A stretch of 61,833 nt of DNA, the filler included, from Nemertoderma westbladi (lineage: Eukaryota; Animalia; Xenacoelomorpha), in the NCBI GenBank assembly GCA_032718475.1. It is 3 parts of 3 records of this genome, joined end to end, with 100 filler letters (N's around TTAATTAATTAA, not from the genome) between each part and the next. Parts side by side here need not be neighbours in the genome. Positions count along the whole stretch, not along the records: positions 21,197 to 38,751 come from JAUCBJ010004309.1; positions 38,852 to 61,833 come from JAUCBJ010006236.1; 1 more part is not named here. One strand, 5' to 3'. The position numbers were made by a program, and so were the translations under genes. The notes below the pieces were generated by a model. It made no database searches. It was not told where the DNA came from and saw nothing but the letters and a program-made list of their open reading frames with translations. Positions 18,641 through 50,632 of this stretch are shown piece after piece (position 1 is the stretch's first letter; each line of letters opens with the position of its first letter).

Positions 18641-18675
18641 TCAAACCACGAGTTCACCATAGAAGACACACTAAC

Positions 18676-21096: not shown

Positions 21097-21196
21097 NNNN
21101 NNNNNNNNNNNNNNNNNNNNNNNNNNNNNNNNNNNNNNNNTTAATTAATTAANNNNNNNNNNNNNNNNNNNNNNNNNNNNNNNNNNNNNNNNNNNN
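21097..21196. other. Scaffold gap with TTAATTAATTAA spacer
   Basis: N44-ttaattaattaa-N44, identical in format to the gap at 38752-38851. Confidence 0.95.
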
Positions 21197-23084: not shown

Positions 23085-26000
23085 ATGGTTGTAAATCACC
23101 AGTTATGCATAACTAAACGGAAATCTTACTGGGAGCTACTAAGGTTGAGTAGTGGGATCTGTGCGGTGGAGATGGTTTATGCGTCTGAGCTGGCCTTTGT
23201 GTCTCCTTTGTTGCTGAGAGTTGGACTTAGTAAAACCTACATGACTATGGTCTGGTTAGTAATACTTCCAGTATCAATACAATACCTATAAGACTATATA
23301 GTTTATGGTTAAAATAATGATTTAGTAATACGGTAGTAGTACAGTAATAGTACAATATAATAACAATGGTTGGTATATACTGTATATGTAGGATGTTACT
23401 TTCGCCTGACATCAACAATGTAATTAACAGCACAGCTGACGTTGCCAGGATTCCAAATATGTAACAATATCTGAATTTAGGTGAGAATCAGCTGAGATAT
23501 AGGCGTTCAAAGATTGGAGGAATAATTGTACGGGTGACAGCTACTGCTTAAAGGCAGTCGTTGGACTACCCCCAAAATACCTTGAAATGTATGATAATGT
23601 TACGCCGGCACTAAATGATGAATATTAGAGATTCGATACTGTAAAATTATCGCGGTACCAATTTGCCAAATCCATTCCTCAATAAAATCCTACCCTGCAA
23701 CTCCATCGCTTGGCAGTCATTAATAATTATCTTCACAATCTTGTTGCCTTGTTCTATATTAATAATAACTGTTACGCCGAATGTTCAATAAAACTGAACT
23801 TATGGTTGATCGAGTTGGACGACTTGTTTTGAGTGTACCGGTGTCCGGTTATATACCGCAATACATACAGGCCAAACATATAGTAGCATGTAATGTAATA
23901 TCTTTAGGATAACAGTAGTGTTAAACTATTTATGTAAATGTTAAAAATTTCCATCCTACTAAAAAATGAAATGTTGGCCTACAGTATGGGGATGAGCGAA
24001 TCTGAAATTATAGTTTAGGTGGGGAAGTCAGCAGTACTCCAGCCTCCACCAGGGTCAAATAGGTGTAAAGGATGGAATATAAAGGCCCGGTTTAGCGACA
24101 CGCTTTGCACTTTCAGCGCATTTGAGATGTTCAGCGACAACGCTTTGTAAATGCGTTGAGTTCAAAGTGCTCTCTGAAAACCCAGAGTTGAGAAATGTTG
24201 AACTTTCCGATTTCAAAGCGTTCCATATTAACATTATATCTATGGCGATGAATATGTGATGGATTTTCAAATTGCCATTTAAATCACATGATCACTTGCA
24301 GTTCGCGCCTGCGTTATTAAATTTATAATTGAGGTAGACCGTATAGTATACAGTATAAAAATGTCTTCAATTCTCGGCATTTTAAAGAAAGACCTGGCAA
24401 ATTTTGATGCAAAATTATAAATTAATTACAAGTAAATTATTGATGGATTATTGATAACTTTTCTCAAACATCGTTGCAACTATGTTTAAATATTGCTGCA
24501 ACCACATTTCCACAAATCGTTGTCGTTAAACCGAAAACGATTAGCTGGCGCTTCGCCAACGCACTCTGAACTCATTTTCAAAGTTGTCCCAGCGCGGTAA
24601 GAGTGCTCTCAACGAGTGCTGAAAGTGCGTTGAAAGTCTATGGAAAGCAAACCGGGCCTTACCCCGTTACCCGTTAAGTAGGCTACACTACAGTAAGCTT
24701 CCTTACTTTGCCCTGCGCCAAGGCTCATCGAACGTATGCAATGAACGAACTTCATTATTCGCAGGTGTCTGTCTCCCCTCCTCGGATTCTTCCTGACACC
24801 TGTACTCGGTTCCCTTAGCGACCAGTGCTCCTCTCCTATTGGTCGCCGCAGACCGTTTATCGCTGGACTCACTGCCACAATGCTCATCGGTCTGCTAATA
24901 ATCCCCAACTCCGTCAACCTAATCGAATCAACATCACCGATCCCCGACTTTCCATCCAATCAGAGCCAAATAGAATATATTGCCAAAGAAACCACTGACC
25001 AATCGGATAACAGTAGAACCTTGTGGTATCTGGGAAGAGTTTTGATGGTCATCGGGATAATATTTTTGGATTTCAGCAGCGATGCGAACACAAGCAGCAT
25101 TCGGTCGTATTTACTGGATGTACTCCACCCGGACGACCACAGTAGGGGACTGAGGTTAGTAAAACATAGACCACCACTAGTTCACATACTTACATATTCA
25201 CATAATGTCGTCATAGGGTTTTTCGAAAATTTAGTGCACGTGTTTGTCCATACATTTGACTATTATGCTTATGTACCTCTTCTGAAGAATTGGTTCAACA
25301 GAAAGGCTTGAAATTTGGAGGGGAATTAATTTTGCATGTGTCTCAGATGTGGTAGCAGAATACTTATTTTGATCACCAGAAATTTTCAAAGTGGAAAATG
25401 TTATTTGTAAAAAGTATTTTGGCTGTTTTTTTGTGATGTAACTTTTGAAATTTCTAACAGACATGTCTAAATGTGGTACCAATACTGTACAGTATAAAGG
25501 AATAGTAGAAGAAAATGTTCAATGAAAATTGAAATCGCTGAAAATTTCATGCAATTTGGTCCAGTAGTTCCAGAGAAACAGATATATGAGTGAAAAATGA
25601 AAAGGAAAACACAGACAGACAGCCTGATATAGACCATCTAGACTCCTTTAACCGTTAAAACAGACATCATAAATGAAATTATAGACTGACAGACAAACAG
25701 AGAGCTATAACTCGAGAACTAAAAAAGATCTCGCTATGTCGTTTTCTTTCAGTTTTGAAATCGCCATTAAATTTTGATCCAGAATCCGTAAAAAAAATGT
25801 TGATTTCTTTTAAATTTTGACCACAAACAGGAGCCCTTAAAATCATTGTTATTTGACATGGTTATAAATTTAACTCTTCAGTTCTGTAGACAGTTTACAT
25901 TGTAGTAAAACATTGTAATCACATCTTGTGTATCTCGTTACATTTTAAACTTTTCATATATCATGTACTGGAACACTACATCATATTTCAGTAAGAAAAA

Positions 26001-29000
26001 AAAAATTCCAAAAAAAAAATATTAATTTAAAATGAATCAAACGTTTTAAAAAACTGACGCCATTGATATTGTCTGGTTGAACCGCAGCCATAACAATACG
26101 TGTTTCATTTTCGTTGTATTTGTTGCTTTGGTGAGCAGGATCCTTATAGTGAGTTTACTTATTATATCTTTCGTAGTAATTTCAATTCTTAATTAAATAT
26201 TACCAACCAACTATCTTTGCAGCACGTTTACTTTCCTTGCTGGTTTCGGGGGTGCACTGATTTATGCTGCGAGCGCCATAGACTGGGACAAACTAACCGG
26301 CAGAACATCTGAATTAGAGGAACATGCTGCGGCAATATTCTACTTTTGTGCCGTATGTTTGGTCATTCAGGTTGGTGGTCTTAATGGTTAATAAAAAAAA
26401 CGCCTCTGCAATTTATATTTCAATGTATATTAGTTCTCACCTTGTCAGATAGGGGGAACTGGACGCAATAAAAATTCATCCCTCTCCAGGGGAAATTCGA
26501 ATAACAGCTGAATACTCTCAAAAATAAAACTGTAACCTGTTCTATTGTGTTTAGTTTATTGTTTTGGTTAAAATAACGTGCCACTGTAACCTGCTCCTTT
26601 CCCTAAATTGAGAATTTTACATTGAGGCGGGATATTAATTCGCCAAGGCGGGTTTTGCGTCGAGTTCCCCCCCCCCACTCCCCCTGTCTCCACCTCGTCG
26701 TAGAGGTTTTAATCCGTGGCCTTGAATTTACATCTCTCCGGAGGTCGTGAGAGTTTTGTGTCCCTGGCCTAACTACCTGAGAATAGTTCAATTATTTAAT
26801 ACAATAGGCCTACTTTACTTTTAACATTATTTAACAATTATTTAATACAATAGGCCTACTTTACTTTTAACATTATTTAATTGTTATGTATTATTTACAC
26901 AATTCTATTGTCATTATCGCACATTGTGCAATAATAAAGTAAAGATAAACCTATCAACTCAATAGATACAACAAATAATTATTTCCTAACTCGAATTTAT
27001 TCAGGTCGCTCTGACTATTACTGGGCAGAAGGAAGTCCCGCTGTCGGCTTTAACCCAAGTAACAGTCCCTACTGGTAGTTTGTTTGAAGATTCAGATGAT
27101 GATGTTTTAAGGTGCAGTATAAAATAAAATATAGCCATTCTATCCCTACCGGTACCAAAGTTTTTATTAGCTATAGTATTCACTCGATACGTTGTTGTTG
27201 TATTTCCAGTTAGGTTTTAACTGAAAACTCAAAAAAACTCAAAACCTCGCAGTAGTGGAGAGTTTGGTAGAGCGTTTGACTTCGAATCTCTAGGTGTACC
27301 GAGTTCAATCCCACATTCCGGTGAATTTTTTAGATAGTAAGATTGGTAGTAAGCCATTCAAGGAAGAGACCGTTCATGCGTTAGTAGACGCGGACCTTTG
27401 GGCGATTTTGCGCATGCTAATTTGACTTTTAGATGACAGAAAAAAAATTAATATACATATTAAAGTAAAAGTTTGAATTTATAAAGCAAATGAATATTGT
27501 TATATTAATTATTAAACTAATTAATAAATATTGAACTAATTTTCAAGAAAGTGAACAACAACCATATAGCGGTGGTAATTTAATTAAGCAAGTAGAACTA
27601 GTTAATAAAAAACTGGAGACCCATTGCTGCATGCGATGAGTACCGGGGGACAACCGCTAGCGTTCATCTCATAACAAGGGCATTCTCAGGAGGACAAGCT
27701 GAGAGAAATGCCAACAGAGATACGTCACAAAGGGATAGATAAATATTAATGAAGTAAATCAGAGTGGATGAGTTGCACGTAACTATAGTAACTAACCACA
27801 GGTAAGCAGTAACATTAGCCCGGATGTTGCCGCTTCATAAATTATAAGAGGGTGTTGAACTGACACTCAGAATTTGTTATATTTCAAAATTATCTGTTTT
27901 GGTTATAAATATTATTATTATTGCAGTAGAACGGTGTATAAAGACGACATCATTGAAACAGATGTTACCGAAACCGCCGTACCGGTACTTACAGACCACA
28001 ATGGGAAGGACAGTGTAGATTCTTATGAGGATATCGGCCTAGAAACCGAGTCCAACCAATCAGTGGAAGTGAAAGAAAATAAAAGGTTATGTCCAGCTTA
28101 GCATGAGTTAGTTAGCAGCACACTAATAACGGTTGGTTGTCATAAGGCCCGAGTCAGACATGAGCTTTCCCATAGGCTAGGCCTACACCATTCTGTTATA
28201 ACTATCGGTAATTCTAGCCAACCGTTAGAATGGCATTATATTAATATACTTTAGTACTTTATTATTTATTCTGAATGTGCTAATATTTTAGGCGCAAACT
28301 AAAAGAAATTGATGAGGTTGAGTTGACCTATTCTGTTAAACTCGCTCCCAATGAGGAGACAAGCTTGCGACAGTATCTGTGGAGTATAATTCGGTTGCCA
28401 TGGTGGTTGTTTATAGTCTGTCTGTCTAACTATCTCTGTTGGGTCAGCATAATGAGTTACATGATATTCTTTACAGACTTTGTTGGTAAGCAACCCTAAC
28501 TAATAGCAACCGTAGCTAACAGCAACCGTAACCACAGCAACCGTAACGCACACTAACAGCAACCGAAACATTTAATATTTAGCAGTTTCAATGTGTATAT
28601 TTGTTGTTATAGGCCTATACATTTTATACACAGGAGGTTTGAAAAAACAACTTGACTTTTCCAATGGATTTAATAATAATGGGTTTTCTTAAGGGAACCA
28701 ATTAAACTGTTTCTCTCCCTCTAAAAAATATGTTATTGCTTTACCGTGATAAATGAGTTGATAGTTTCACATTATTATAATTATGATATTACAACATTGT
28801 ATATATATACTGTATACACTGCCCTTTCATTGTGTAGCAAGTGGTTATAGAGGGAGGACGACGTAAATTGCGGACATACAAAGTATTAGGTAGTATTTCT
28901 AGGTCTACCTTTAACCTGAGAACCTAAATGAATGGTTAGAGCGCCAGAGTTCCAACCTGAAGGTCACCAGTTCGATCCCACCTGGACGTAATTGCCGACT

Positions 29001-30706
29001 ATTGCTAATATTGTACATTAATTCACTGTTAGGTGAATCTATATACAAAGGAAATCCGACGGGAACTATTGAGGAGAAGGCGTTGTACAACGTGGGAGTT
29101 CGTAGAGGATGTTGGGGATTGGCTATATGGTGTATAGCTAGTTCTTTTATAAGTTCAATGTATGCGAGTATATTGTCTCGTTTCGGTGAGTTGTAATTCA
29201 TTAACATTCATATATATATCTACATGCTGTATTGAGAATACTACGACGGATTGGTAAGTTAAAGATCACCCCGCCCACTCCCCCTACACATAATATATTG
29301 TCAAAAAATTAGGCCGCCTCAATTTATTATCTCCCGTGACTGAGATTATCTAATATATTTCAATCACTTGTGTTGTATATAGGATCCAAACGTACGTACA
29401 TCTTCGGGATGCTTATCAACACATTCGGGGCTATAGTCCAGGGTTTCGCTAACAACTTCGCTATCTCCATGTTCCTCAGCTGTCTTGGGGGTTTACTCTA
29501 CACCTCAACGTTTGTCATTCCCTTCAATATCGTCGCTACATATCACTCTCACGGATTGGTTAGTGTTTACTTTATAGGACTGTCACGGATTGGTTAGTGT
29601 TTACTTTATACGATTCTCACAGATTAGTTAGTTTACTTTATGCATGCGCCACCCACGGATTGGTTAGTGTTTACTTTATACGATTCTCACAGATTAGGTA
29701 GTTTACTTTATGCGACTCCCCTCGGAGTAGTTAGTGTTTACTTTATACGACTATCATGGATTGGTTAGTTAGTACTTTATGCGCCACCCACGGATTGGTT
29801 AGTGTTTACTTTATACGACACTCACGGATTGGTTAGTGTTTACTTTATACGATTCTCACAGATTAGGTAGTTTACTTTATGCGACCCCCCTCGGAGTGGT
29901 TAGTGTTTACTTTATACGACTCTCATGGATTGGTTAGTTAGTACTTTATGCGCCTCCCACGGATTAGTTAGTGTTTACTTTATACGACACTCACGGATTC
30001 GTTAGTGTTTACTTTATACGTCTCTCACGGGTTAGGTAGTTTACTTTATGCGACTCCCCTCGGAGTGGTTAGTGTTTACTTTATACGACTCTCATGGATT
30101 GGTTAGTTAGTACTTTATGCGCCTCCCACGGATTAGTTAGTGTTTACTTTATACGACACTCACGGATTCGTTAGTGTTTACTTTATACGTCTCTCACGGG
30201 TTAGTGTTTACTTTATGCGACTATCACGGATTGGTTAGTTTATTTATACTTTATACGACTCTCACAGATTGGACAGTATACTTGACATTACTGTTATTTT
30301 ACTTTATTTTACTTGAACGGACTGCTAATTTTATATTGCAGATTAGTAATCCTTTGTTTGGAAACTACTCTAAGTCAATATATAACGTCAATATGAGATA
30401 TCTACAGTTCGCACCAGTTAATTGTTGATGGTTTTTTTGTTTTAGGGTGGGTCCCAGCCGGGAGGTAAACGAATAGCCCCCCGCGGTCTGGGAACCGATG
30501 TTGGCATAGTAACCAGTATGATGTTTGTAGCCCAGTTCACGCTCAGCCTGTTTATGGGTTCCATAGTGGAGGCGGTTGGTACCACTAGCGCCACCATGTT
30601 TACCAGCGGGATATTCAGTGGCTTAGCAGCGATAATAGCGACGAGGATAGACTACCTAGATGATTACTCCGCCAATAGCAAAGATGGCTTCCAGTTAATG
30701 GCTTAA
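23085..30706 (+). CDS. SLC45: SLC45-family (proton-associated sugar transporter/MATP-like) MFS protein. Exons: 23085-23254, 24765-25154, 26223-26370, 27005-27111, 27927-28085, 28292-28485, 29033-29185, 29383-29558, 30446-30706
   Basis: Motifs EMVYASELAFVSPLLL, W|CLSPLLGF..P.LGSLSDQCSSPIGRRRPFI, LDFSSD...IRSYLLD, FTDFVGESIYKGNP, YNVGVRRGCWGL and RGLGTD. All GT-AG junctions are phase-compatible. The start codon is uncertain. Confidence 0.9.
24083..24659. mobile_element. Tourist/PIF-Harbinger-like MITE in SLC45 intron 1
   Basis: Terminal inverted repeats aggcccggttt / aaaccgggcct plus subterminal gcactttcagc / gctgaaagtgc. Confidence 0.65.
27249..27325 (+). mobile_element. Degenerate tRNA-derived SINE head or tRNA pseudogene
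   Basis: A-box-like tggtagagcg and B-box-like gagttcaatccc, with no intact cloverleaf. Confidence 0.45.
28915..28990 (+). mobile_element. tRNA-derived SINE head, same family as 49760-49833 and 50062-50316
   Basis: cctgag...gaatggttagagcgccaga...aggtcaccagttcgatcccacc. Flanking sequence is also shared with the 49760-49890 copy. Confidence 0.6.
29545..30270 (+). repeat. ~30-34-bp tandem array (~22 copies) made from the SLC45 exon 8 donor junction
   Basis: Unit cgactctcacggattg|gttagtgtttactttata. The first copy is the real exon end and donor (29558/29559). Confidence 0.9.
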
Positions 30707-32723
30707 ATAAATATGTTATTAAAATTTCCAGTTTAGAATTTAAATTTAATTTAAAACAATCTGTTACTAACTGTATAAAATCACCAAGTCCAGAAAGAGA
30801 AGAAACACATTTAGTAAAGGGTGTTTTTCATAAAAACTAAATAATTATTGAATAACTACGTAAACAAACACTGCCGCGTTAATGCAAAAACACCTCATCT
30901 CAAAAATATCGAAATACTGCATTTAATACAATAAGGTAATTTATAGTTTTTGGTACCACCAACTCAAATCCGAAAATCAGATATCGGCATATATTCCTAC
31001 GAACCGATTACTGAATTAAATGTTCGTTGTTGCTGGATGTGGATAAATTTCGTACAAAAGTCCTCAAGATTGAAGTTCCTGACATTCTTATAAGAAAAGT
31101 TTAAAAAGCATCAAATTTTCTTGTTTCGGCTGGAAGGGGCGTGACGACGTAACAGACACTGCCACCAACATATTATGTGGGGCGAGCCACGCAGTCAGGG
31201 CAAACCTTAGCGCACAATTATAATTCGTAAATAGGGCAAAGTTTCATGTCCGTATGACTGTCTGTCTGTCCGTCTGTCTTTCTGTCCTTCTCTAATGAAA
31301 AATTCATTCGTAAATAACTTTTTGAAGATTTTAACCATTTTCAACCAAATTTTGTATGGACATACTAGAGAAAAAGTTCCAATACTTTTGAAAGTTGGGG
31401 GCAAATACCGAACTTTTGACTCCAGATCAAATCGAACTTGTTTCGAGTTCACGTGCTGCGCGACGCCCCACGAACGTGTTTTTCCTTCAAATAAATTAGG
31501 TTAGGTATGTAATGCTAAGCAGCTTTATTCAAATAGCCCCAAAAGTGTTTCTATGACAACTGCATAATTCCAAACTTATGATAAAGTTTATACCAAAAAC
31601 TATAATTTCAATTGTTTTGGTTTATTTGAAAATGAAATTTAAGTATAAATAGCAAACACTGCTGTACGATCATAGTGTTGTTGTACCTAAATTTAATTTA
31701 GCGAACTAAATTATTTGACATGATATATAATTTTAAGAAACTTTTATAAAATAAAAATTGTTAAATATAAATTGTGTGTTTCAGGTATTCATGTTACGGT
31801 CTATTTATAGTAACTGTGTTACAGTAGCTGATGATGTATGTAGTCAGAGTAAATTGTGGTTAAGATTATAATAATATAGTTAGTTACAAACATAATGATA
31901 ACTTTTATAGTGAATGATAATTCTTGAATATATTCCGATATTAAATACGGAGGTTCGGTAAAGTAAAGGAGTTTATATAATCGCATTATATTATTCATAC
32001 AGATAAATTGTACTTTATCATTCATTGCTAAACCAAATAGCACAAAAAACGCGCGTACATATTCCAAGTCACGTATTTACTCAAATTATAAAACCCGGGC
32101 GTTAAAATGGGGGCGAGAGTGAGAGGGGTCTCATTCGAGGCAGATACTGTTAATTTTCGAAGGGGGGGGGGGGGGGGGGGGGTGTTGTATTTTATTAAGT
32201 ACACTTAAAAACAAAAAAAAAACAATTTAAGTTCTATTATAGACCAGACATTCTGAACTAAAATGGAAATTGTTTGCAATATTGCAATAGTTCAATTATT
32301 TATCGAGACATTTTACTTTATATTTTGTTTACTGCAGGTAGATAATGAAAAAAAGGAAATAACCCCTGGTGAGAACAAAAAATATATTTGATATACTTAC
32401 AGAATTTAATTCAGCCACACAAGTTCAGTTTTTATTCACTTACACTAGAGTTGCAACAGAGACCTGATTTTCTTAATCCCGGTAAACCAGAGCCCTACCC
32501 AGAGAATTATTTTGAAAAATACCGGAGACCAGAGCCGGAGATCAGAGACTTTGCATATTTTTATACTTACAATTTGATTACTCCCCTATATCACAAACAG
32601 GTACATACGGCCTTAGAACTGTTTTTCTATGGTTCAATTACAGTAAAGTAAATCCAACCCATTTCTCAACCCTTACCTACCGATTGTAAGAAAATAAGCG
32701 CACATACAGTTTGGGGGGCTTAA

Positions 32724-33632
32724 GGGGGGGGGGGGGGGGGGGGTATACCCCCCATGAACCTTTTATTAAAATGGCTGTCAATTAGTGTTAAATGATAATA
32801 TTGATATTTTGTCATGGTCAACCACTGTATGGAAGGCCAAAAAGCCTTTATAGTAAAATTTGAAAATTTATAGCCTCCCCCTAGCGGCTGGCGGCGGAAT
32901 TAAAGATTTCACTAAAATTGCTACTAGTCACTCAATTAATTTTGGTCCAAATTTCTTGAAACCAACTTTTTTGGACTCAGCGTGATCGACTCTACAAAAG
33001 TTATCTTATAGAATTTTTAATTAGCCATTTTTATTTTAATTAATTAATTTAATTAATTAATTATCATATTTTTAATAAAATTGGCTAATTAGAAAAAATA
33101 GTAATATTTATCAAAATTCCGTAAGATAACTTTTAAAGAGCTTCCAAAGCTTGTTCGAATGAGCCATAAACGAAGAAAATTGGTTAAAAAATGACGGAGG
33201 AGTAGTAATTTGAAAATGAAAAATGTCATTCCGAGAAAATGCCCTTCAAAGTTTAAACCGTCCCGCCAAAATTGGCTGTCTGTGTTCTGGTTGGTTAGTT
33301 ATTTTTGGCAAGAAGGATGCACACCAACGAGCTAAAATGTTCATTACTGGGGTTTTCGGGGTCGCTGATTTCATTTCCGATGTCAGTTTTAATTTTTGGT
33401 GGAATCTAGTCTATCTGTCTGTCTGTCGGTCTTCTGTCTTTCTTACAATTTGACGGACAGACCGTCATACGGAAAAACAGTGATAACTCGAGAACTAAAA
33501 GAGGTCTCACTAAGCGGTTTTCAGATTTGTAATCCTCATTAAATTCTGCTCTAGATGAAATAAAGAAGCAACAATTTGAAAATTTTACCTGAGGGGGGGG
33601 GGGGGGGGGGGTATACCCCCCCCCCCCCCCCC
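32724..33632. mobile_element. Non-autonomous DNA transposon with poly-G/poly-C termini and TTAA flanks (Kolobok-like)
   Basis: TTAA-G(n)TATACCCC ... GGGGTATAC(n)-TTAA terminal inverted repeats. Confidence 0.55.
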
Positions 33633-34055
33633 TTAATTAATATTAATTTGGTTATTTGTTTATTAATTCGTTCTTATTTTGTTATTGTTAATAATATGTT
33701 ACATTAATTTGTTTTGCGCCATAGGTACCGATACGTTGTTAATTAAAGTTACGCCCGTTCTCTCCATTTGGTCTTCATATTATCTATCCTATAACAAATT
33801 GAATTGAGATCAGCCCTTTCTTTCACTTTTAAACATTACGGGAGCTCAAATTAAGCGCCCTTATCCTTAAATAAGAACCCTCTTTAGGTGCTAATTAAAA
33901 TTAAAATTAAACGCACCTTAAATTAATTAAATAGAAGATTATCGCTACAATATTTATTAGAAATAGAAATAGTGTAAAAGTGAATATGTAATTTTGTTGA
34001 AGCAGAGTATTAAAAATATTTAAAAATTAAAGAAATTATTAATTGGAAAAAATTT

Positions 34056-36415
34056 GTGAATAATAATAAGTCCCAGATAGACCATATTCTGTTTCGTAGG
34101 AAATACAGGAGCTCTATACAAGACTGTAATGCATTTACACTTCGACCCTTCTCCAGTGATCACCGCCTTATTGTGGCCAAGGTAAGACTTAGTCTGCGTG
34201 CTAGCAGAACAACGAAATCTGCCTTGCCGCGGCATGACTGGTCCTCTCTGTTGCAACAGCCAAGTGTGAGATCCAGCTTCACATTACAGCTGAGCAACAG
34301 GTATGAGGCTCTTGCCTCTGAGGCGGCAGATCACTGTGAGGGCTATACTGCCTTTACAGAAGCAGTTAAGTTAGCAGCTGCAGAAACAGTTCCTGTATAC
34401 CCTCGAAACAGGAAAAGGGCCCCCTGGACTGACAACAAAATTCAGAAGTGCCGAAATGACCTTCATAAGGCGCAGAAAGAGTCCCGACTCAAACAGACTA
34501 CAGCGGCCAAGAATGCAGTTAAGGCTGCATCTAGGTCCCTGAACAGGCAGTACTCTATTAATCTACAGGAGCTAATAAACCAACAGGTTGATGCCATCAA
34601 TGATGCTGACGACAGCAGGCAATCATCCCAGGCATGGAAATCGATCAATTTGCTTACTGGGCGGAAAAGCCAACCAACCACCAAGGTTAAGGCTGAATCA
34701 CCAGCCGATCGCCTCAATGGTTGGAAAGCCCACTTTGAAAAGCTCCTCAATAATGACAGGGTATTGCCTGATAACTTTATAGAAGTAAAAGTGTCTGAGT
34801 CTGTACTCCCAGATATTCCCATTGGCGATATCTCCTTTGCAGAAGTGAAGGCTGCTGCAAAGAGCATTAAGACCAATCGTGCCAGTGGAGTAGATGGTGT
34901 TCCCCCTGAGGTCTTTAAAATACCTGAGTGTTTAAAGCTCATCTATCCCATCATAGTAGACATGTACCGAACAACAAGAGTTCCACAAGAAATGAAAACA
35001 AATAAGTTGGTGCCAGTTCCCAAGAAGGGCAACCTAACACTCTATGGTTCTTTTCGGGGAATCTCATTGATCTCGATTGCTGCAAAGCTATACAATAGGA
35101 TTCTATTAAATCGCATCAGGGATCCCATTGAGAGACTGCTCCGTGGAAATCAGAATGGGTTCCGTAAAGGTCGTGGGACCATGGAGCCCATTTTGGCACT
35201 TAGAAGGATAATTGAAGAATTATCAAAAAAGAAAGACAGGCACCTGGCTGTTATCTTTGTTGACTTCTTCAAGGCCTTTGATTCAGTCTCTCGCTCACGT
35301 ATGTTCAGCATACTTTCATTATATGGGATTCCTGATGAAATTATTGCAGCAATCAGATCAGTATACGATGGTTCGACAACATTTGTGTCTACTGTTGACG
35401 GTGACACAGAACCATTTGAAGTGTTATGGGGCGTCCTCCAAGGAGACACACTTGCACCATTCTTGTTCATTATTGTGGTTGACTATGTTCTACGCATGTC
35501 CTTAGATCATCATAATGATGATGGGGTGATGATAACTCCACCTACTGGCTCCAGAAGTCGAGGAAATCCTGCCAAGTACCTAACTGATCTAGACTTTGCT
35601 GATGACTTAGGAGTACTCTCAGAATCATTAGAGGGAGCCCAACGGCTCCTCAGCTCATTAGAACATGCTGCTTCTAGTGTTGGTCTTTTTATTAACTCCA
35701 GAAAGACCAAAATTTTGACAGTTAACTTTGAAAGTCCTCAGCAAGTCTCTGATCGGATGAGCATAAGCTCAAAAGATGGTATGCTTGAGCATGTGGACGA
35801 CTTCTGTTACCTGGGATCATGGATCCGGAAGTCAGGTGAGGACCTTCGAATACGTAAGGGAAAGGCATGGGCAGCCTTGAATAGGCTTTCCAGGATTTGG
35901 AAGTCACCGAGAATTAATCGGAAACTTAAGGTCCGATTATTTAGAGCAGCAGTAGTTCCAGTACTCCTCTACGGGAGTCCATGCTGGGCTCTAACTGCTG
36001 AGGACACCAAATCTCTGGATGGCACATTCACAAGAATGCTACGCCGGGTTCATTGTGTCAAGTACAATGCACACATCTCCAACCAGACACTATATAACAT
36101 TGGAGGTGTCTCATTGGTTCCCCCATGCTTGACACTAGAACAAAATCGCCTCCGCTTTGCAGGACATTGCTTTCGCCGTGAGGACCAGCCAGTGCATAAT
36201 CTTGTACTTTGGCAGCCTCATGGAGTGAATAAGCATGGTGGACAGCCCATGACTTTCTTGAGACGCATCTTAAAGGACACTGGCCTTGAAGATGCGGATG
36301 ATCTAGCAAATGTCATGGGTGATAGGGAGTTGTGGCGGTGCAATTTTGTTGACAGGCCGGCACAGCATTCTTAAAAATGCAGCTGCAATGCAGCATGCCG
36401 ATCCTAGTAGTAGTA
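34056..36415 (+). mobile_element. 5'-truncated RTE-clade-like non-LTR retrotransposon with an uninterrupted RT ORF (34056-36374)
   Basis: Endonuclease C-terminus (QIDHIL, SDHRLI), RT motifs FRGISL, QNGFR, VDFFKAFDSV, GVLQGDTLAP, FADD and YLGS, a short 3' UTR and a (TAG)n tail near 36404-36415. Confidence 0.9.
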
Positions 36416-37299
36416 TGAACACAGTTTTTGGAGCATACTACAACTGCTGACTTTTGCTGAACCAGGCTGATCAATCAGCTTATTAATAATTGCAGCCGGA
36501 TTGGATAAATTATTAATTAATTTGGGAAACTTTACTAATTAGTAAAATCGTTAATTAGTTCGATTCAAAAGATTTTAGAATAATTATTATTTGTAAAATA
36601 GTAAACCGCATTGATACACCTTGTGAATAAGGATTTGGGGGCGGGGGGGACAAAGCCCCCCCGCCAATTAGGTAATTAAGTAATTAGTTAATTACTAATT
36701 AACGGTAGGAGATACGGCATCGGCGCCAGAGACTTTTTTGTGTAGAATAAAATTCCGAACAACTTTGTGATGTTACGTTTTTTCATAGCTCTTAGTGTTT
36801 TCGAGTTACGACGCTAATTAGTTTTCGGCTAATTAGTACTAATTAACAGTAATAGGAGGGCCATAGCGATGACTGAACTTTTTTTAGATCTTACCGAGAT
36901 GAACAAAAAAAAACACCGTTGCTAGGGGAAAAACCAAATACTTTTTGAGAAAAATCAATTAGAAATCTTTAATCGCTAATTACTAATTAATTAATTAACA
37001 GATTTTTTCCACAAAAACTCCTAGCTATCGCGCTAGGGCCATCTACCAGATCGCGCAAACAGAATCGTTCTAGCTTTTGCCATTCTCCTGGAAAAATCCT
37101 TTAAAAATCGACCTAAAAAAGATCAAAGCAAAGTGCCTACTTGACAAGGGGTTCGATATAATGCTATCTTATGAGGTTTTACTTTGGTGTTTATGTTGGT
37201 TTGCTAAGTTCCGTTAAAAAGGCTGCATTATTTATTCCTCATAAGACTCTGTCGAGCCTTTGGCTCTCCAGTGGCAGCCAGACCATCCAGACCATCCAG

Positions 37300-38751
37300 T
37301 TTCTTAAATAACCGCACACATTTTGTTTCAATAGGCAACACAAAATCAGAACCGATACTGTCTCCCTGTGGAACCCCACAAGGAGCAATACTGAGCGCCA
37401 CTTTATTCCTACTTTACATTAACGACTTACCCAATTGTACAACACTTCTAGCAACCCTATTCGCAGACGACACTAACCTACTTTACAGCCATACAGACCC
37501 GACCATACTGACTGACACTGTAAACACAGAACTCCAAAAGGTCGAACAATGGCTTACTGACAATCAGCTCTCTTTAAACCTTAAAAAAACAGAACACCTA
37601 ATTTTTACATTTAAAAAGGAACCTATAAATAACAATATAAATATGCAAAACTTACCAATCAAGAAAGTAACTCAAACAAAATTTTTAGGAATATGGATAG
37701 ATAACAAACTTACATGGAAAAATCACTGCGCGTATGTACTAAAAAAAATCTCAAAATCTATAGGTATATTCTTCAAATTACGTCACATCCTACCATTAGG
37801 CATTATGAAATTACTTTACTACGCTTTGATACAACCATATATTACGTACGGTATAGTGATCTGGGGAACTGCTAAACATGTTCATATTAATCCGATTAAA
37901 ACTAAAATAAACAAATTAATTAGAGCAATTACCTTCAGTCACTACCGGAAACATGCACCACCACTATACAGACAATTAAATATACTACCTATAGACAAAT
38001 TACACATACTTGAAACAGCTAAACTAATCTGGGAAATCCGTAATAACAAAAAACGATCTTTTATAACATCATTGTTCCAACAAACATCCACTTTACATAC
38101 TTACAATACTCGATCAACGACACGCCAAAACTACTTTATACCTCGGACCCGACTATTACTAACTCAAAATTCATTAAAATATCACGGCGCCATTGTCTGG
38201 AACTCCTTAGACACCGACATAAAACAAAGCAAATCGAAAAAAACACTAGGTAGGAAACTAAAAATCAAATTAATTAATGAACTACAGTAAAAACAAAAAT
38301 GATATAAATTAAATACAAATAAATATCAAACCTAATCTTCCAAAAAATAACAATTTAATTATTTACAACAGATATCACAGGTAAAAAATAGTTGGAATAC
38401 AACTATTGGTTATGGTTATGGATATGGCAGAATTGAACTTAGTAGTGGCTGGCGGCATCCCTTGAAATTCTCCCCCCCCCCCCCCCCTCCCCCACCCACC
38501 CCTGATTGACCGATGGCAGCAACCGGCATTACTAGCTACCGCTACTGTCAGTTCCTGCCAGGGCACATAAACATAATAGCACACAAAAAAATTGCAGAAC
38601 ATACAAACAAATTTGAAATGCTCTCAAGGTGAATTATATTTTAATTTGTTTTGTGAACTACTGTTTATTTAAATATTGTCTGTAAATTGTGTGCGGTCAC
38701 TCTGGAACAAAATATAAGAGCCCTTACAGGCTCACATCAATCAATCAATCA
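37300..38751 (+). mobile_element. 5'-truncated L2/CR1-group LINE (RT C-terminal half to 38290, 3' UTR, (TCAA)n tail)
   Basis: GTPQGAILSATLFLLYINDL, FADDT, KFLGIWIDNKLTW and HTYNTRS; ends in atcaatcaatcaatca before the gap. Confidence 0.85.
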
Positions 38752-38851
38752 NNNNNNNNNNNNNNNNNNNNNNNNNNNNNNNNNNNNNNNNNNNNTTAAT
38801 TAATTAANNNNNNNNNNNNNNNNNNNNNNNNNNNNNNNNNNNNNNNNNNNN
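38752..38851. other. Scaffold gap with TTAATTAATTAA spacer
   Basis: N44-ttaattaattaa-N44. Confidence 0.95.
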
Positions 38852-41800
38852 CAGGTATTGCGGGCTCTGCTACTCTCCTTATTAGTACCTACTGTAGGCC
38901 GACAGTATAATATTACTCATATACTTTAGGTATCCATATCGCCAGGTATTGCGGGCTCTGCTACTCTCCTTATTAGTACCTACTGTAGGCCGACAGTATA
39001 ATATTCCCCATATACTTTAGGTATCCATATCGCCAGGTATTGCGGGCTCTGCTACTCTCCTTATTAGTACCTACTGTAGGCCGACAGTATAATATTCCTC
39101 ATATACTTTAGGTATCCATATCGCCAGGTATTGCGGGCTCTGCTACTCTCCTTATTAGTACCTACTGTAGGCCGACAGTATAATATTACTCATATACTTT
39201 AGGTATCCATATCGCCAGGTATTGCGGGCTCTGCTACTCTCCTTATTAGTACCTACTGTAGGCCGACACTATAATATTACTCATATACTTTAGGTATCCA
39301 TATCGCCAGGTATTGCGGGCTCTGCTACTCTCATTATTAGTACCTACTGTAGGCCGACAGTATAATATTCCCCATATACTTTAGGTATCCATATCGCCAG
39401 GTATTGCGGGCTCTGCTACTCTCCTTATTAGTACCTACTGTAGGCCGACAGTATAATATTCCCCATATACTTTAGGTATCCATATCGCCAGGTATTGCGG
39501 GCTCTGCTACTCTCCTTATTAGTACCTACTGTAGGCCGACAGTATAATATTACTCATATACTTTAGGTATCCATATCGCCAGGTATTGCGGGCTCTGCTA
39601 CTCTCCCTATTAGTACCTACTGTAGGCCGACACTATAATATTACTCATATACTTTAGGTATCCATATCGCCAGGTATTGCGGGCTCTGCTACTCTCCTTA
39701 TTAGTACCTACTGTAGGCCGACAGTATAATATTCCCCATATACTTTAGGTATCCATATCGCCAGGTATTGCGGGCTCTGCTACTCTCCTTATTAGTACCT
39801 ACTGTAGGCCGACAGTATAATATTACTCATATACTTTAGGTATCCATATCGCCAGGTATTGCGGGCTCTGCTACTCTCCTTATTAGTACCTACTGTAGGC
39901 CGACAGTATAATATTCCCCATATACTTTAGGTATCCATATCGCCAGGTATTGCGGGCTCTGCTACTCTCATTATTAGTACCTACTGTAGGCCGACAGTAT
40001 AATATTCCCCATATACTTTAGGTATCCATATCGCCAGGTATTGCGGGCTCTGCTACTCTCCCTATTAGTACCTACTGTAGGCCGACAGTATAATATTACT
40101 CATATACTTTAGGTATCCATATCGCCAGGTATTGCGGGCTCTGCTACTCTCCTTATTAGTACCTACTGTAGGCCGACAGTATAATATTCCCCATATACTT
40201 TAGGTATCCATATCGCCAGGTATTGCGGGCTCTGCTACTCTCCTTATTAGTACCTACTGTAGGCCGACAGTATAATATTCCCCATATACTTTAGGTATCC
40301 ATATCGCCAGGTATTGCGGGCTCTGCTACTCTCCTTATTAGTACCTACTGTAGGCCGACAGTATAATATTCCCCATATACTTTAGGTGTCCATATCGCCA
40401 GGTATTGCGGGCTCTGCTACTCTCCTTATTAGTACCTACTGTAGGCCGACAGTATAATATTACTCATATACTTTAGGTATCCATATCGCCAGGTATTGCG
40501 GGCTCTGCTACTCTCCTTATTAGTACCTACTGTAGGCCGACAGTATAATATTCCCCATATACTTTAGGTGTCCATATCGCCAGGTATTGCGGGCTCTGCT
40601 ACTCTCCTTATTAGTACCTACTGTAGGCCGACAGTATAATATTACTCATATACTTTAGGTATCCATATCGCCAGGTATTGCGGGCTCTGCTACTCTCCTT
40701 ATTAGTACCTACTGTAGGCCGACAGTATAATATTCCCCATATACTTTAGGTGTCCATATCGCCAGGTATTGCGGGCTCTGCTACTCTCATTATTAGTACC
40801 TACTGTAGGCCGACAGTATAATATTACTCATATACTTTAGGTATCCATATCGCCAGGTATTGCGGGCTCTGCTACTCTCCTTATTAGTACCTACTGTAGG
40901 CCGACAGTATAATATTCCCCATATACTTTAGGTGTCCATATCGCCAGGTATTGCGGGCTCTGCTACTCTCCTTATTAGTACCTACTGTAGGCCGACAGTA
41001 TAATATTACTCATATACTTTAGGTATCCATATCGCCAGGTATTGCGGGCTCTGCTACTCTCCTTATTAGTACCTACTGTAGGCCGACAGTATAATATTCC
41101 CCATATACTTTAGGTGTCCATATCGCCAGGTATTGCGGGCTCTGCTACTCTCCTTATTAGTACCTACTGTAGGCCGACAGTATAATATTCCCCATATACT
41201 TTAGGTATCCATATCGCCAGGTATTGCGGGCTCTGCTACTCTCCTTATTAGTACCTACTGTAGGCCGACAGTATAATATTCCCCATATACTTTAGGTATC
41301 CATATCGCCAGGTATTGCGGGCTCTGCTACTCTCCTTATTAGTACCTACTGTAGGCCGACAGTATAATATTCCCCATATACTTTAGGTGTCCATATCGCC
41401 AGGTATTGCGGGCTCTGCTACTCTCATTATTAGTACCTACTGTAGGCCGACAGTATAATATTACTCATATACTTTAGGTATCCATATCGCCAGGTATTGC
41501 GGGCTCTGCTACTCTCCTTATTAGTACCTACTGTAGGCCGACAGTATAATATTCCCCATATACTTTAGGTGTCCATATCGCCAGGTATTGCGGGCTCTGC
41601 TACTCTCCTTATTAGTACCTACTATAGGCCGTCAGTATAATATTACTCATATACTTTAGGTATCCATATCGCCAGGTATTGCGGGCTCTGCTACTCTCCT
41701 TATTAGTACCTACTGTAGGCCGACAGTATAATATTCCCCATATACTTTAGGTGTCCATATCGCCAGGTATTGCGGGCTCTGCTACTCTCCTTATTAGTAC

Positions 41801-44707
41801 CTACTGTAGGCCGACAGTATAATATTACTCATATACTTTAGGTATCCATATCGCCACGTATTGCGGGCTCTGCTACTCTCCTTATTAGTACCTACTGTAG
41901 GCCGACAGTATAATATTACTCATATACTTTAGGTATCCATATCGCCAGGTATTGCGGGCTCTGCTACTCTCATTATTAGTACCTACTGTAGGCCGACAGT
42001 ATAATATTACTCATATACTTTAGGTGTCCATATCGCCAGGTATTGCGGGCTCTGCTACTCTCATTATTAGTACCTACTGTAGGCCGACAGTATAATATTA
42101 CTCATATACTTTAGGTATCCATATCGCCAGGTATTGCGGGCTCTGCTACTCTCCTTATTAGTACCTACTGTAGGCCGACAGTATAATATTCCCCATATAC
42201 TTTAGGTGTCCATATCGCCAGGTATTGCGGGCTCTGCTACTCTCCTTATTAGTACCTACTGTAGGCCGACAGTATAATATTACTCATATACTTTAGGTAT
42301 CCATATCGCCAGGTATTGCGGGCTCTGCTACTCTCCTTATTAGTACCTACTGTAGGCCGACAGTATAATATTCCCCATATACTTTAGGTGTCCATATCGC
42401 CAGGTATTGCGGGCTCTGCTACTCTCATTATTAGTACCTACTGTAGGCCGACAGTATAATATTCCCCATATACTTTAGGTATCCATATCGCCAGGTATTG
42501 CGGGCTCTGCTACTCTCCTTATTAGTACCTACTGTAGGCCGACAGTATAATATTCCCCATATACTTTAGGTATCCATATCGCCAGGTATTGCGGGCTCTG
42601 CTACTCTCCTTATTAGTACCTACTGTAGGCCGACAGTATAATATTCCCCATATACTTTAGGTGTCCATATCGCCAGGTATTGCGGGCTCTGCTACTCTCA
42701 TTATTAGTACCTACTGTAGGCCGACAGTATAATATTACTCATATACTTTAGGTATCCATATCGCCAGGTATTGCGGGCTCTGCTACTCTCCTTATTAGTA
42801 CCTACTGTAGGCCGACAGTATAATATTCCCCATATACTTTAGGTGTCCATATCGCCAGGTATTGCGGGCTCTGCTACTCTCCTTATTAGTACCTACTATA
42901 GGCCGTCAGTATAATATTACTCATATACTTTAGGTATCCATATCGCCAGGTATTGCGGGCTCTGCTACTCTCCTTATTAGTACCTACTGTAGGCCGACAG
43001 TATAATATTCCCCATATACTTTAGGTGTCCATATCGCCAGGTATTGCGGGCTCTGCTACTCTCCTTATTAGTACCTACTGTAGGCCGACAGTATAATATT
43101 ACTCATATACTTTAGGTATCCATATCGCCACGTATTGCGGGCTCTGCTACTCTCCTTATTAGTACCTACTGTAGGCCGACAGTATAATATTACTCATATA
43201 CTTTAGGTATCCATATCGCCAGGTATTGCGGGCTCTGCTACTCTCATTATTAGTACCTACTGTAGGCCGACAGTATAATATTACTCATATACTTTAGGTA
43301 TCCATATCGCCACGTATTGCGGGCTCTGCTACTCTCCTTATTAGTACCTACTGTAGGCCGACAGTATAATATTACTCATATACTTTAGGTATCCATATCG
43401 CCAGGTATTGCGGGCTCTGCTACTCTCCTTATTAGTACCTACTGTAGGCCGACAGTATAATATTACTCATATACTTTAGGTATCCATATCGCCAGGTATT
43501 GCGGGCTCTGCTACTCTCCTTATTAGTACCTACTGTAGGCCGACAGTATAATATTCCCCATATACTTTAGGTATCCATATCGCCAGGTATTGCGGGCTCT
43601 GCTACTCTCCTTATTAGTACCTACTGTAGGCCGACACTATAATATTACTCATATACTTTAGGTATCCATATCGCCAGGTATTGCGGGCTCTGCTACTCTC
43701 CTTATTAGTACCTACTGTAGGCCGACAGTATAATATTACTCATATACTTTAGGTATCCATATCGCCAGGTATTGCGGGCTCTGCTACTCTCCTTATTAGT
43801 ACCTACTGTAGGCCGACACTATAATATTACTCATATACTTTAGGTATCCATATCGCCAGGTATTGCGGGCTCTGCTACTCTCATTATTAGTACCTACTGT
43901 AGGGCGACAGTATAATATTACTCATATACTTTAGGTATCCATATCGCCAGGTATTGCGGGCTCTGCTACTCTCCTTATTAGTACCTACTGTAGGCCGACA
44001 GTATAATATTACTCATATACTTTAGGTATCCATATCGCCAGGTATTGCGGGCTCTGCTACTCTCCTTATTAGTACCTACTGTAGGCCGACAGTATAATAT
44101 TACTCATATACTTTAGGTATCCATATCGCCAGGTATTGCGGGCTCTGCTACTCTCCTTATTAGTACCTACTGTAGGCCGACAGTATAATATTACTCATAT
44201 ACTTTAGGTATCCATATCGCCAGGTATTGCGGGCTCTGCTACTCTCCTTATTAGTACCTACTGTAGGCCGACACTATAATATTACTCATATACTTTAGGT
44301 ATCCATATCGCCAGGTATTGCGGGCTCTGCTACTCTCCTTATTAGTACCTACTGTAGGCCGCCAGTATAATATTCCCCATATACTTTAGGTGTCCATATC
44401 GCCAGGTATTGCGGGCTCTGCTACTCTCCTTATTAGTACTGTACCTACTGTAGGCCGACAGTATAATATTACTCATATACTTTAGGTGTCCATATCGCCA
44501 GGTATTGCGGGCTCTGCTACTCTCATTATTAGTACCTACTGTAGGCCGACAGTATAATATTACTCATATACTTTAGGTATCCATATCGCCAGGTATTGCG
44601 GGCTCTGCTACTCTCCTTATTAGTACCTACTGTAGGCCGACAGTATAATATTACTCATATACTTTAGGTATCCATATCGCCAGGTATTGCGGGCTCTGCT
44701 ACTCTCC
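38852..44707 (+). repeat. 91-bp tandem array (64 acceptor copies visible, running into the gap) made from an intron 3' end plus the exon start of the clavesin-like gene
   Basis: Unit gtatccatatcgccaggtattgcgggctctgctactctcc-ttattagtacctactgtaggccgacagtataatattactcatatactttag. The last copy continues as coding exon 44668-44797. Confidence 0.97.
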
Positions 44708-46768
44708 CTTGAGAAGATTTCCGACGATTCGGTAAATTGTTTGTTGCCATACAAAGTCGTGTTCATCGTCGATTTCGTTTCTTTTACATTCGATCAGGTG
44801 ATTACGCCATCTAGTGGGTGATTGTCGCATTGAATTATAATTTTAAATATTGCAGTATATCGGTAGGCCAAAAGTTATAAGGCCCTATGAAGATGAAGTA
44901 ACGCAATTTTTATAATATTACAGTACGCGGGGTGTTTTAAATTATTTGTAATGTGCCATATTGGAATATAATGCGCTAAACGCTACACTTGCTGCCTATA
45001 ATGTCAAGTAATATTGACAATTTATACAAAAGATATAGGCCTTCAAAGACATGTAAAAGTACAATTTACAAATCTAATGTAAGAAATATATCATAAGAAA
45101 TAATTATTACGTTTTAGAATTTATCACGATCAATAATTCGGTATTATATTAATTTAGCTGAATTATTATTATATTTATCAATATTTTTCTACTTTTTAAT
45201 TTCGTAGGCCAATATATTTTTCCTATCTTTCATTTCGTTTTAATTATTTTAGGCTAAAGAACTAACAGTGCGGGAACTGAAACTAACTGTAGACGCCCTT
45301 GAAGATAGTCTACCAATAGTTATAGATGAAGTTCATCTAATAAACCCGCCGTGGTTTATGCAGGCGGCGTTGGCTATGATTAGGCCATTTCTAAACACCA
45401 GATCCAAAGAAAAGGTTAGAATTCTGGTGGTACACCACAATTCCATAAAGTTTGCCACGGAGTTGGTGTAGTTTACCGCTATTCGCTCACTATTCGGCGT
45501 TTGCAGTGGTACCATACCGAATGCCCATCGGCACATTATGCCTAATTGCACAATATAATGCACATAGAATGCATTTAAACTAACTATTTTGCCTCAAGTT
45601 TTCGAACAACCTCTCCAGTCTGCATAAACTCATATTTGTTTTAGATTCACAAACATTCGAACAACCTCTCCAGTCTGCATAAACTCATATTTGTTTTAGA
45701 TTCACAAACATTCGAACAACCTCTCCAGTCTGCATAAACTCCTATTTGTTTTAGATTCACAAACATTCGAACAACCTCTCCAGTCTGCATAAACTCATAT
45801 TTGTTTTAGATTCACAAACATTCGAACAACCTCTCCAGTCTGCATAAACTCCTATTTGTTTTAGATTCACAAACATTCGAACAACCTCTCCAGTCTGCAT
45901 AAACTCATATTTGTTTTAGATTCACAAACATTCGAACAACCTCTCCAGTCTGCATAAACTCATATTTGTTTTAGATTCACAAACATTCGAACAACCTCTC
46001 CAGTCTGCATAAACTCATATTTGTTTTAGATTCACAAACATTCGAACAACCTCTCCAGTCTGCATAAACTCATATTTGTTTTAGATTCACAAACATTCGA
46101 ACAACCTCTCCAGTTTGCATAAACTCATATTTGTTTTAGATTCACAAACATTCGAACAACCTCTCCAGTCTGCATAAACTCCTATTTGTTTTAGATTCAC
46201 AAACTTTCGAACAACCTCTCCAGTCTGCATAAACTCCTATTTGTTTTAGATTCACAAACATTCGAACAACCTCTCCAGTCTGCATAAACTCATATTTGTT
46301 TTAGATTCACAAACATTCGAACAACCTCTCCAGTCTGCATAAACTCCTATTTGTTTTAGATTCACAAACATTCGAACAACCTCTCCAGTCTGCATAAACT
46401 CCTATTTGTTTTAGATTCACAAACATTCGAACAACCTCTCCAGTCTGCATAAACTCCTATTTGTTTTAGATTCACAAACATTCGAACAACCTCTCCAGTC
46501 TGCATAAACTCCTATTTGTTTTAGATTCACAAACATTCGAACAACCTCTCCAGTCTGCATAAACTCCTATTTGTTTTAGATTCACAAACATTCGAACAAC
46601 CTCTCCAGTCTGCATAAACTCCTACCGCGAGAGAATTTACCGGCTGATTTGGGGGGCCTTCGGCCGCCGTGTCAGCAGGATGCGTGGGCGTGGAGACTGA
46701 TATATAGCCAATACTGGGTTCCCAATAGCCAAAGAACAGAGGACGAAAAGCCCATATGGGAAGCCTAA
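44668..46768 (+). CDS. Clavesin/CRALBP (RLBP1)-like CRAL-TRIO lipid-binding protein, last three exons (44668-44797, 45253-45414, 46580-46768); 5' exons not visible
   Basis: Spliced YPYRQVLRALLLSLEKISDDSVNCLLPYKVVFIVDFVSFTFDQ|AKELTVRELKLTVDALEDSLPIVIDEVHLINPPWFMQAALAMIRPFLNTRSKEK|IHKHSNNLSSLHKLLPRENLPADLGGLRPP...WEA* is colinear with recalled clavesin motifs (LRAILLSLE, VHFVNQPW, KPFL, NNLNSLH, LPSEFGG). Confidence 0.88.
45601..46624 (+). repeat. 55-bp tandem array (18 acceptor copies) made from the terminal-exon acceptor junction of the clavesin-like gene
   Basis: Unit tttgttttag|attcacaaacattcgaacaacctctccagtctgcataaactc(c/a)ta. The last copy opens the final exon at 46580. Confidence 0.97.
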
Positions 46769-50316: not shown

Positions 50317-50632
50317 TCGTATTTTGTGTTTTGCCAAGCTGTGTGCCTAATAATATTGTACAGTATAAAGCCCAAAGCCCAACGAATGATATAATGATAT
50401 TTATTTTTTGTCAGTTCAATGCATGACGTTTTATTTAGATCGAGACTATCCAATGCCACGTGCTGACTGCACGCTGCACACAGATCTGCGTTCTAACATC
50501 AGGACGTTGTGCTGTTGTGTTATACTGTTATACCATCGGTTTCTCTTTGGTCGGTGTCTTATCGCTACCGGAACTCTGTTACTTACCCGTATAGCAGTAG
50601 GCCTACCTGTTATCAGTTACTTTCTTAGATCT

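Follow-up and report, generated by a model that had tools for sequence, protein, structure and literature searches.

Minisatellites spanning splice junctions in two genes of Nemertoderma westbladi are new loci of the amphioxus 'mirage' type

Tandem repeats whose unit runs across the boundary between an exon and an intron are known as 'mirages' in amphioxus, and the founding paper on them is said, by the papers that cite it, to be that of Canestro et al. (2002). Here we analyse three arrays of this kind, A1, A2 and A3, in the genome of the xenacoelomorph Nemertoderma westbladi (assembly GCA_032718475.1). The window, by which we mean the whole stretch of DNA analysed, is 61,833 nt long with filler included; A1 lies at a donor junction of an SLC45-like transporter gene, and A2 and A3 lie at acceptor junctions of a clavesin-like gene of the CRAL-TRIO family. 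Amphioxus mirages are described in Adh3, the globin genes BflGb6 and BflGb9, troponin C and PGBD5 as minisatellite-like repeats with a unit that spans an intron/exon boundary, the unit measuring 10–72 bp in Adh3, 150–160 bp in the globins, and 60 and 108 bp in PGBD5 (PMC3087553, PMC3902484). According to the same reports the repeats can involve either the 5′ or the 3′ boundary, AG/GT signals are retained in many units, the arrays show length instability and splicing is normal (PMC3087553, PMC3902484).

A second group of described systems comes from human genes. In F7 (a 37-bp variable number tandem repeat in intron 7), IFI6 (6-16), CBS, LMNB2 and PDGF, the first monomer of a minisatellite is reported to span the exon–intron boundary (PMC1557585). 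All of the pseudo-sites of F7 are described as functional, and a 5′-to-3′ scanning-type process picks the most upstream donor; in F7, LMNB2 and PDGF, splicing is normally confined to the most upstream site, and in IFI6 and CBS it extends to the two nearest pseudo-sites (PMC1557585). The junction-spanning type of repeat is therefore already in print, both as amphioxus mirages and as human minisatellites, and A1–A3 are new loci of it. Like the amphioxus mirages, they consist of head-to-tail units of minisatellite size (34, 91 and 55 bp) that span a host junction, and in all three the authentic junction is, in silico, that of the exon-contiguous copy, the other copies being intronic. They differ from the mirages in their hosts, which are SLC45-like and CRAL-TRIO genes, and in copy number, which is at least 64 in A2 compared with 3–6 in BflGb6. 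The likeness of A1 to the F7-type arrays lies in the order of its sites, with the authentic donor first and identical pseudo-donors behind it, although the F7 unit comprises 4 exon nt and 33 intron nt whereas that of A1 comprises 14 and 20. Moreover, the human cases are all mammalian and donor-side, whereas two of the three arrays found here are acceptor-side.

Tandem Repeats Finder (TRF), applied to the whole window, returned 35 rows; at least 10 copies were present in four arrays, three of which are A1, A2 and A3. The original prediction for this stretch had placed three junction-derived arrays in the same two genes, and the TRF arrays coincide with its coordinates for A2 and A3. For A1 the predicted start (29545) was correct and the end required a small revision, from 30270 to 30272. 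That each unit carries an authentic exon/intron junction is supported by splice motifs and by collinear homology in the SLC45-like and CRAL-TRIO genes. The three satellites had also been held to be unrelated, and indeed their units share only chance matches of 11–15 nt and are found nowhere else in the window. This points to three local events and not to one mobile element, and a single dispersed element behind all three arrays was rejected for the same reason. We consider it probable that A1–A3 are three independent 'mirage'-type minisatellites, each arising from a short junction-spanning duplication followed by expansion and homogenization, with no need for a process that targets junctions.

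A1 (29545–30272, + strand) is a 34-bp donor-junction minisatellite within the SLC45-like gene (~23109–30706, + strand). TRF gives 21.4 units with 76% matches, and also a higher-order period of 169 bp, corresponding to five units, at 4.2 copies and 91% matches. Each unit is made up of the last 14 nt of an SLC45-like exon and the first 20 nt of the intron. The host exon is the penultimate coding exon (29383–29558, + strand; acceptor tatag|GATCC, donor TTG|GTTAGT), of which 29545–29558 is the exon part of the unit; it ends ...CAC GGA TTG, placing the authentic junction TTG|GTTAGT at 29558|29559. This exon aligns with residues 454–510 of the SLC45 relative P0027 and 420–477 of P0028 (..ATYHSHGL in comparison with ..AHYHSNGV). 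The last coding exon (30446–30706, + strand, to the stop codon; acceptor ttttag|GGTGGG) matches residues 656–721 of the human SLC45A4 chain 9giu_A (E=0.0033) and, by tblastn, residues 519–582 of P0027. When the two exons are joined (29385–29558 plus 30446–30703), the product is collinear with P0027 residues 454–582 with one 1-residue gap.

Further support for the gene model came from a protein search with 24745–25311, which returned two SLC45 relatives; these define seven exon blocks and 12 internal junctions by homology. A protein search with exon 30446–30703 (setting 'longer') scored no relative, and a PDB search with exon 29385–29558 gave 0 matches. The closest protein relatives found for the SLC45-like and CRAL-TRIO proteins are at most 48% identical, and the annotated products of the two genes were not found in the protein collection. 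A separate candidate in the SLC45-like gene, the peptide LYINSLLGE upstream of the exon at 29034, was considered as a degenerate copy of the previous exon end and rejected, as it represents the intron being read through ahead of the acceptor tgttag|GT.

The array contains 21 donor copies, namely the authentic site and 20 decoys, with GTTAGT at the homologous position in 18 of the 21 and GGTAGT in the other three. Five copies, at 29559 (the authentic site), 29593, 29663, 29798 and 29832, are identical over −9 to +8. Simulated use of a decoy donor led to a premature stop in 20 of 20 cases. In 19 of them the distance from the exon end to the stop is 12 codons; with the remaining decoy, the second donor copy, it is 18 codons, and the stop falls after the join, in the last exon.

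A2 (38852–44707, + strand) is a 91-bp acceptor-junction minisatellite of 64.3 units with 97% matches (TRF), each unit comprising 51 nt of intron end and 40 nt of exon start. The sequence ACTTTAG|GTRTCC is present 64 times, once as the authentic acceptor (ACTTTAG|GTATCC at 44667|44668) and 63 times as a decoy, and unique exon sequence begins at 44708. The exon behind the array (44668–44797, + strand; donor GATCAG|GTGATT), of which 44668–44707 is the exon part of the unit, belongs to a CRAL-TRIO gene of which three exons were found (44668–46768, + strand). In order to place these exons we used 26 relatives obtained from a full-library HMMER search with exon 45253–45414, 11 of which served for tblastn and 12 for a profile; another protein search with the same exon (setting 'longer') scored no relative. 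The profile matches the authentic exon behind A2 at positions 131–172 (E=3.5e-06) and the A2 decoys only at positions 131–146. A PDB search with exon 44663–44791 gave 0 matches. Decoy acceptor use in silico ended at a stop in 63 of 63 cases; the frame ran for 29 codons before the stop in 62 of them and for 20 in the other. The 15 unit variants of A2 are arranged in recurring multi-unit blocks, the order 'bdbhbag' occurring twice. We also observed that the 'intronic' 51 nt of each unit are open in the exon frame up to the final TAG.

The 5′ end of A2 coincides exactly with a 100-nt gap or linker (38752–38851) composed of 44 N, TTAATTAATTAA and 44 N, so the copy number is a lower bound or the assembler's estimate. 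An identical 100-nt construct occurs at 21097–21196, and both, having stops in every frame, resemble scaffold-join linkers. An upstream CRAL-TRIO exon (profile positions 1–130) was looked for throughout the window and not found, either with the profile against 3339 open reading frames (ORFs) of at least 12 amino acids or by tblastn with the 11 relatives, and no CRAL-TRIO 5′ exons could be located in the interval that separates the SLC45 gene from A2 (30707–38751). The A2 acceptor is consequently identified from its AG, its frame and the start of homology. It may be that the clavesin-like gene is incomplete in the assembly, mis-scaffolded or a 3′ fragment, and it may continue beyond the gap. 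Another reading is that the arrays, or at least their sizes, come from mis-assembly of repeats. The position of A2 (5.9 kb) at a scaffold gap and the missing upstream exon fit this explanation, and one amphioxus globin mirage is reported to have been aberrantly assembled in the draft genome (PMC3087553). However, A1 (0.7 kb) and A3 (1.0 kb) are short and have unique flanks on both sides, structured variant patterns are present in all of the arrays (with 15 types of unit in A2 and four in A3), and the reading frames are matched exactly by the copies that adjoin the exons. An assembly artefact is thus highly improbable.

A3 (45601–46624, + strand) is a 55-bp acceptor-junction minisatellite of 18.6 units with 98% matches (TRF), the unit consisting of 10 nt of intron end and 45 nt of exon start. 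There are 18 copies of TTTGTTTTAG|ATTCAC at a spacing of exactly 55 bp, representing the authentic acceptor and 17 decoys, and all 18 are identical over at least −8 to +12. Four unit variants were distinguished, with alternating pairs at the 5′ end. The authentic junction lies at 46579|46580 and unique exon sequence follows from 46625. The exon that it opens is the last coding exon (IHKHSNNLSSLHKLLPRENLPADLGG.. to the stop; 46580–46768, + strand), the first 45 nt of which are the exon part of the unit. The middle exon (45253–45414, + strand) matches Pfam CRAL_TRIO positions 78–130 (E=1.6e-10) as well as the structures of CRALBP and alpha-TTP (E ~2e-05). By tblastn, the last exon matches residues 205–249 of the relative P0015 (E=4.5e-07), contiguous with the match of the middle exon, such that 44669–44797, 45253–45414 and 46580–46714 correspond to the consecutive P0015 residues 110–150, 151–204 and 205–249. 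The A3 decoy copies, by comparison, match only 15–16 residues of the relatives. Altogether, five junctions of the CRAL-TRIO gene are supported by homology. A PDB search with exon 46580–46768 gave one chance-level match only. Use of a decoy acceptor in silico ended at a stop after 30 codons in 17 of 17 cases.

These results agree with the claims that the decoys are near-identical to the authentic sites and that, whichever of them is used, a stop follows after no more than one or two units. The claim that only the exon-proximal copy is productive stands in so far as the collinear alignment was obtained in silico for the contiguous copy only, but it has no bearing on mechanism. Similarly, each array does extend only into the intron, but this outcome is automatic for any junction-spanning tandem duplication and is uninformative as to how the arrays arose. 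Only one copy can join the rest of the exon, and hence all other copies must be intronic and carry a truncated piece of it. Since both intron-only expansion and the single productive copy follow from this geometry, they provide no evidence for a directed process.

The favoured origin in three independent minisatellites can be set out as follows. A short tandem duplication, produced by slippage or unequal exchange, would have happened to include a junction, and the resulting array would then have been expanded and homogenized by unequal exchange or replication slippage. Such arrays could be tolerated because one intact junction always remains beside the exon. The 169-bp period of A1 and the repeated variant blocks of A2 suggest unequal exchange, that is, the ordinary turnover of minisatellites. 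A1 is, judging by its 76% matches, apparently an older array that has been re-amplified as a five-unit block. No sign of an RNA intermediate was seen in the array sequences, the units of which carry contiguous genomic intron and exon.

The duplications might instead have created the host introns. In the model of Rogers, tandem duplication of an AG|GT proto-splice site duplicates the splice signals without changing the mRNA (discussed in PMC3087553), and the new intron would be the duplicated segment itself, with the duplicated AG|GT at its ends, and a mirage-based model of intron gain is proposed in the amphioxus globin paper (PMC3087553). Each A2 unit does contain two AG|GT motifs, TTTAG|GTATCC and GCCAG|GTATTG (seen in 44590–44707). 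In contrast to the Rogers model, however, the unit here already contained a junction, the introns keep unique sequence and there is no sign of a new intron. Unique non-repeat stretches are found at 45415–45600, 5′ of A3, and at 30273–30445, 3′ of A1, and, by homology, part of the sequence in the units is non-coding. We regard the birth of the host introns from these duplications as barely credible.

Next, we considered how the correct copy might be chosen under the minisatellite reading. As the decoys have the same sequence as the authentic site, the choice among copies must be positional, and the spliceosome would select the exon-adjacent copy by its position. On the donor side (A1) the first site in the 5′-to-3′ order would be chosen, as experiments have shown for the minisatellite in intron 7 of human F7. 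For the acceptors, the last copy would be chosen by exon definition, since it alone precedes unique exon sequence together with the downstream donor in the case of A2, or the terminal-exon and poly(A) signals in the case of A3. Occasional use of a decoy would yield transcripts that are truncated or targeted by nonsense-mediated decay (NMD). For the A3 decoys, whose array precedes the last coding exon, and for the second donor of A1, with its predicted stop in the last exon, the products would be likely to escape NMD and give truncated proteins.

In recursive splice sites an acceptor is followed directly by GT, so as to regenerate a strong donor of the AG|GTAAGT kind, and the intron is removed in steps. 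The A2 unit resembles such ratchet sites in having this layout in each copy (TTTAG|GTATCC). The donor consensus is MAG|GURAGU (PMC1557585), to which the regenerated donor GTATCC is a poor match; GTATCC and GTATTG of A2 have neither a purine at +4 nor G at +5. In A1 and A3 the layout itself is absent. A2 therefore differs from recursive sites in this respect.

It is also conceivable that the decoy arrays are retained for a function, in that copy number sets the yield of productive mRNA by regulated unproductive splicing. In humans, thousands of loci are reported at which variation in splicing is associated with tandem-repeat length (PMC10078293), and the splice sites are intact in 18 of 21 A1 copies, 64 of 64 A2 copies and 18 of 18 A3 copies. 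Nevertheless, recent expansion or concerted evolution alone predicts high identity. Variation in A2, from a reading of the variation line with no formal test, affects about 3 of 40 exon-derived columns compared with about 7 of 51 intron-derived columns, and was counted as no rarer in the former. In addition, the F7 pseudo-sites are described as silent and non-competing (PMC1557585). Functional tuning by copy number is in our judgement very unlikely.

The coincidence of three straddling arrays in one window had been put forward as improbable under random placement, and we therefore compared it with chance expectation. The original prediction reckoned with about 34 junctions; those supported by homology number 12 internal ones in the SLC45-like gene and five in the CRAL-TRIO gene. 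In a window-wide null, the founder unit of each array was placed at random, with 28 arrays of period at least 10 and a number of junctions (J) of 20–50. Under this model 0.29–0.72 straddling arrays are expected, and the probability of three or more is P=0.003–0.04; for the four large arrays alone, P=5e-05 to 7e-04. A Poisson-binomial calculation for the five arrays within the two genes gave P=0.001–0.02 for three or more, the value varying with the intron length assumed upstream of A2. The introns involved are short: the one that leads to the last CRAL-TRIO exon would measure only ~140–190 nt if its array were removed, and the preceding intron measures 455 nt. A 55- or 91-bp founder within the CRAL-TRIO introns would have included a junction with a chance of 3–42%, depending on the assumed upstream intron length. 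We estimate that barring exon interiors from placement would raise the within-gene P further. The window was flagged for this very pattern, which makes all of these tests post hoc. The improbability argument is thus nominally upheld (P=0.001–0.04) but weak, owing to its post hoc nature and the short introns of the genes.

These figures bear on the proposal that mutation is targeted to junctions, by breakage or slippage coupled to splicing or R-loops, or by (rolling-circle) reverse transcription of junction-spanning RNA, and so seeds arrays genome-wide. Three straddling arrays against 0.25–0.85 expected in the window would accord with such a process. So would a 16-bp array of 3.8 units (AGCAACCGTAACTAAC; 28489–28547, + strand; TRF), which begins at position +4 of the intron behind another SLC45 donor; the exon there ends at 28485 (tblastn) with GT at 28486–87, so that the array adjoins the junction without copying the GT. 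The amphioxus authors, for their part, describe mirages as 'possibly a more general phenomenon' with an unclear mechanism (PMC3087553). On the other hand, the statistic is post hoc, pre-array introns of ~140–455 nt in the CRAL-TRIO gene give the founder its 3–42% chance of meeting a junction, units of contiguous intron and exon contain no pointer to an RNA intermediate, and the variant patterns fit unequal exchange. A junction-targeted process is accordingly unlikely. A search of a limited literature library found no genome-wide study of the enrichment of junction-straddling arrays.

Several points nevertheless weigh against an origin in three ordinary minisatellites. Three of the five arrays in the two genes straddle a junction, which is nominally above random expectation both within the genes (0.001–0.02) and window-wide (0.003–0.04), and a bias linked to junctions keeps some plausibility through the 16-bp array, whose start is 3 nt beyond another SLC45 donor. 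A2 adjoins a gap, no exon was detected upstream of it, and at this point the gene may be mis-scaffolded or lack a part. The copy that would be spliced is identified through in silico frame integrity and homology, and the acceptor-side selection rule is proposed by analogy. A broader speculation combines several of these elements, namely that junction-straddling minisatellites are over-represented in this genome and in those of other marine invertebrates, either because junctions seed duplication, through DNA instability coupled to transcription or splicing, or because decoys set mRNA yield, with the 63-copy A2 array and its AG|GT in each unit being resolved by recursive-like splicing. We consider this unlikely.

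Three clean loci are hereby added to a known class, two of them acceptor-side and one with at least 64 copies, all in genes that lie next to each other in the window. Junction arrays are natural experiments in splice-site choice, presenting dozens of identical sites distinguished by position alone. For donors, this choice has been dissected in human F7, and A2 and A3 would permit the mirror test on the acceptor side. They also represent a hazard for annotation, as truncated proteins can be called when a gene predictor settles on a decoy. A general link between the origin of such arrays and junctions, if true, would bear on intron evolution, although the present data do not show one.

Two further tandem arrays in the window were examined alongside A1–A3. 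A 46-bp array of 5.9 units with 98% matches (7168–7437) has a consensus-like donor, G[AT]|GTAAGTGAGT, in every unit, and an open frame with an ATG at ~7148 precedes these donors. No homology support was obtained for an exon adjoining this array; it could be a further junction-type array, belonging to an unrecognized first exon. A 22-bp array of 41 units (CCCAAATCACTCGGTCAGCCGC; 17731–18643), which also shows a 67-bp period, is not junction-derived. About 35 nt separate its end from CAAAG|GTTAGT, which may be the minus-strand donor of an ORF rich in arginine and glutamate (18654–18866).

Other genes in the window take the form of long single ORFs. A complete Eph receptor ORF of 1067 codons (57855–61055, + strand) encodes the ligand-binding, fn3, transmembrane, kinase and SAM domains in one frame, and its local GC content is ~0.60 compared with ~0.35 nearby. 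A prolyl oligopeptidase ORF of 785 codons lies at 50390–52747 (+ strand), most of a gene for a PARN-like CAF1 nuclease at 15497–16993 (+ strand), and an RPL18A ORF at 2725–3252 (− strand). All four are uninterrupted, and such genes are usually many-introned in animals; they could be retrogenes or an intron-poor subset of genes. Two reverse-transcriptase ORFs of the long interspersed nuclear element (LINE) type are located at 34014–36374 and 37208–38290. Finally, an ORF of ~70–105 codons that contains VMSWDQPLPPLYDLFCVRISLFNFAVTMTTAENRCFYTKI and has no Pfam match is present as a local repeated element in three copies on the minus strand (9528–9740, 10870–11187 and 11456–11776), and TRF detects a 127-bp repeat of two units (11085–11339).

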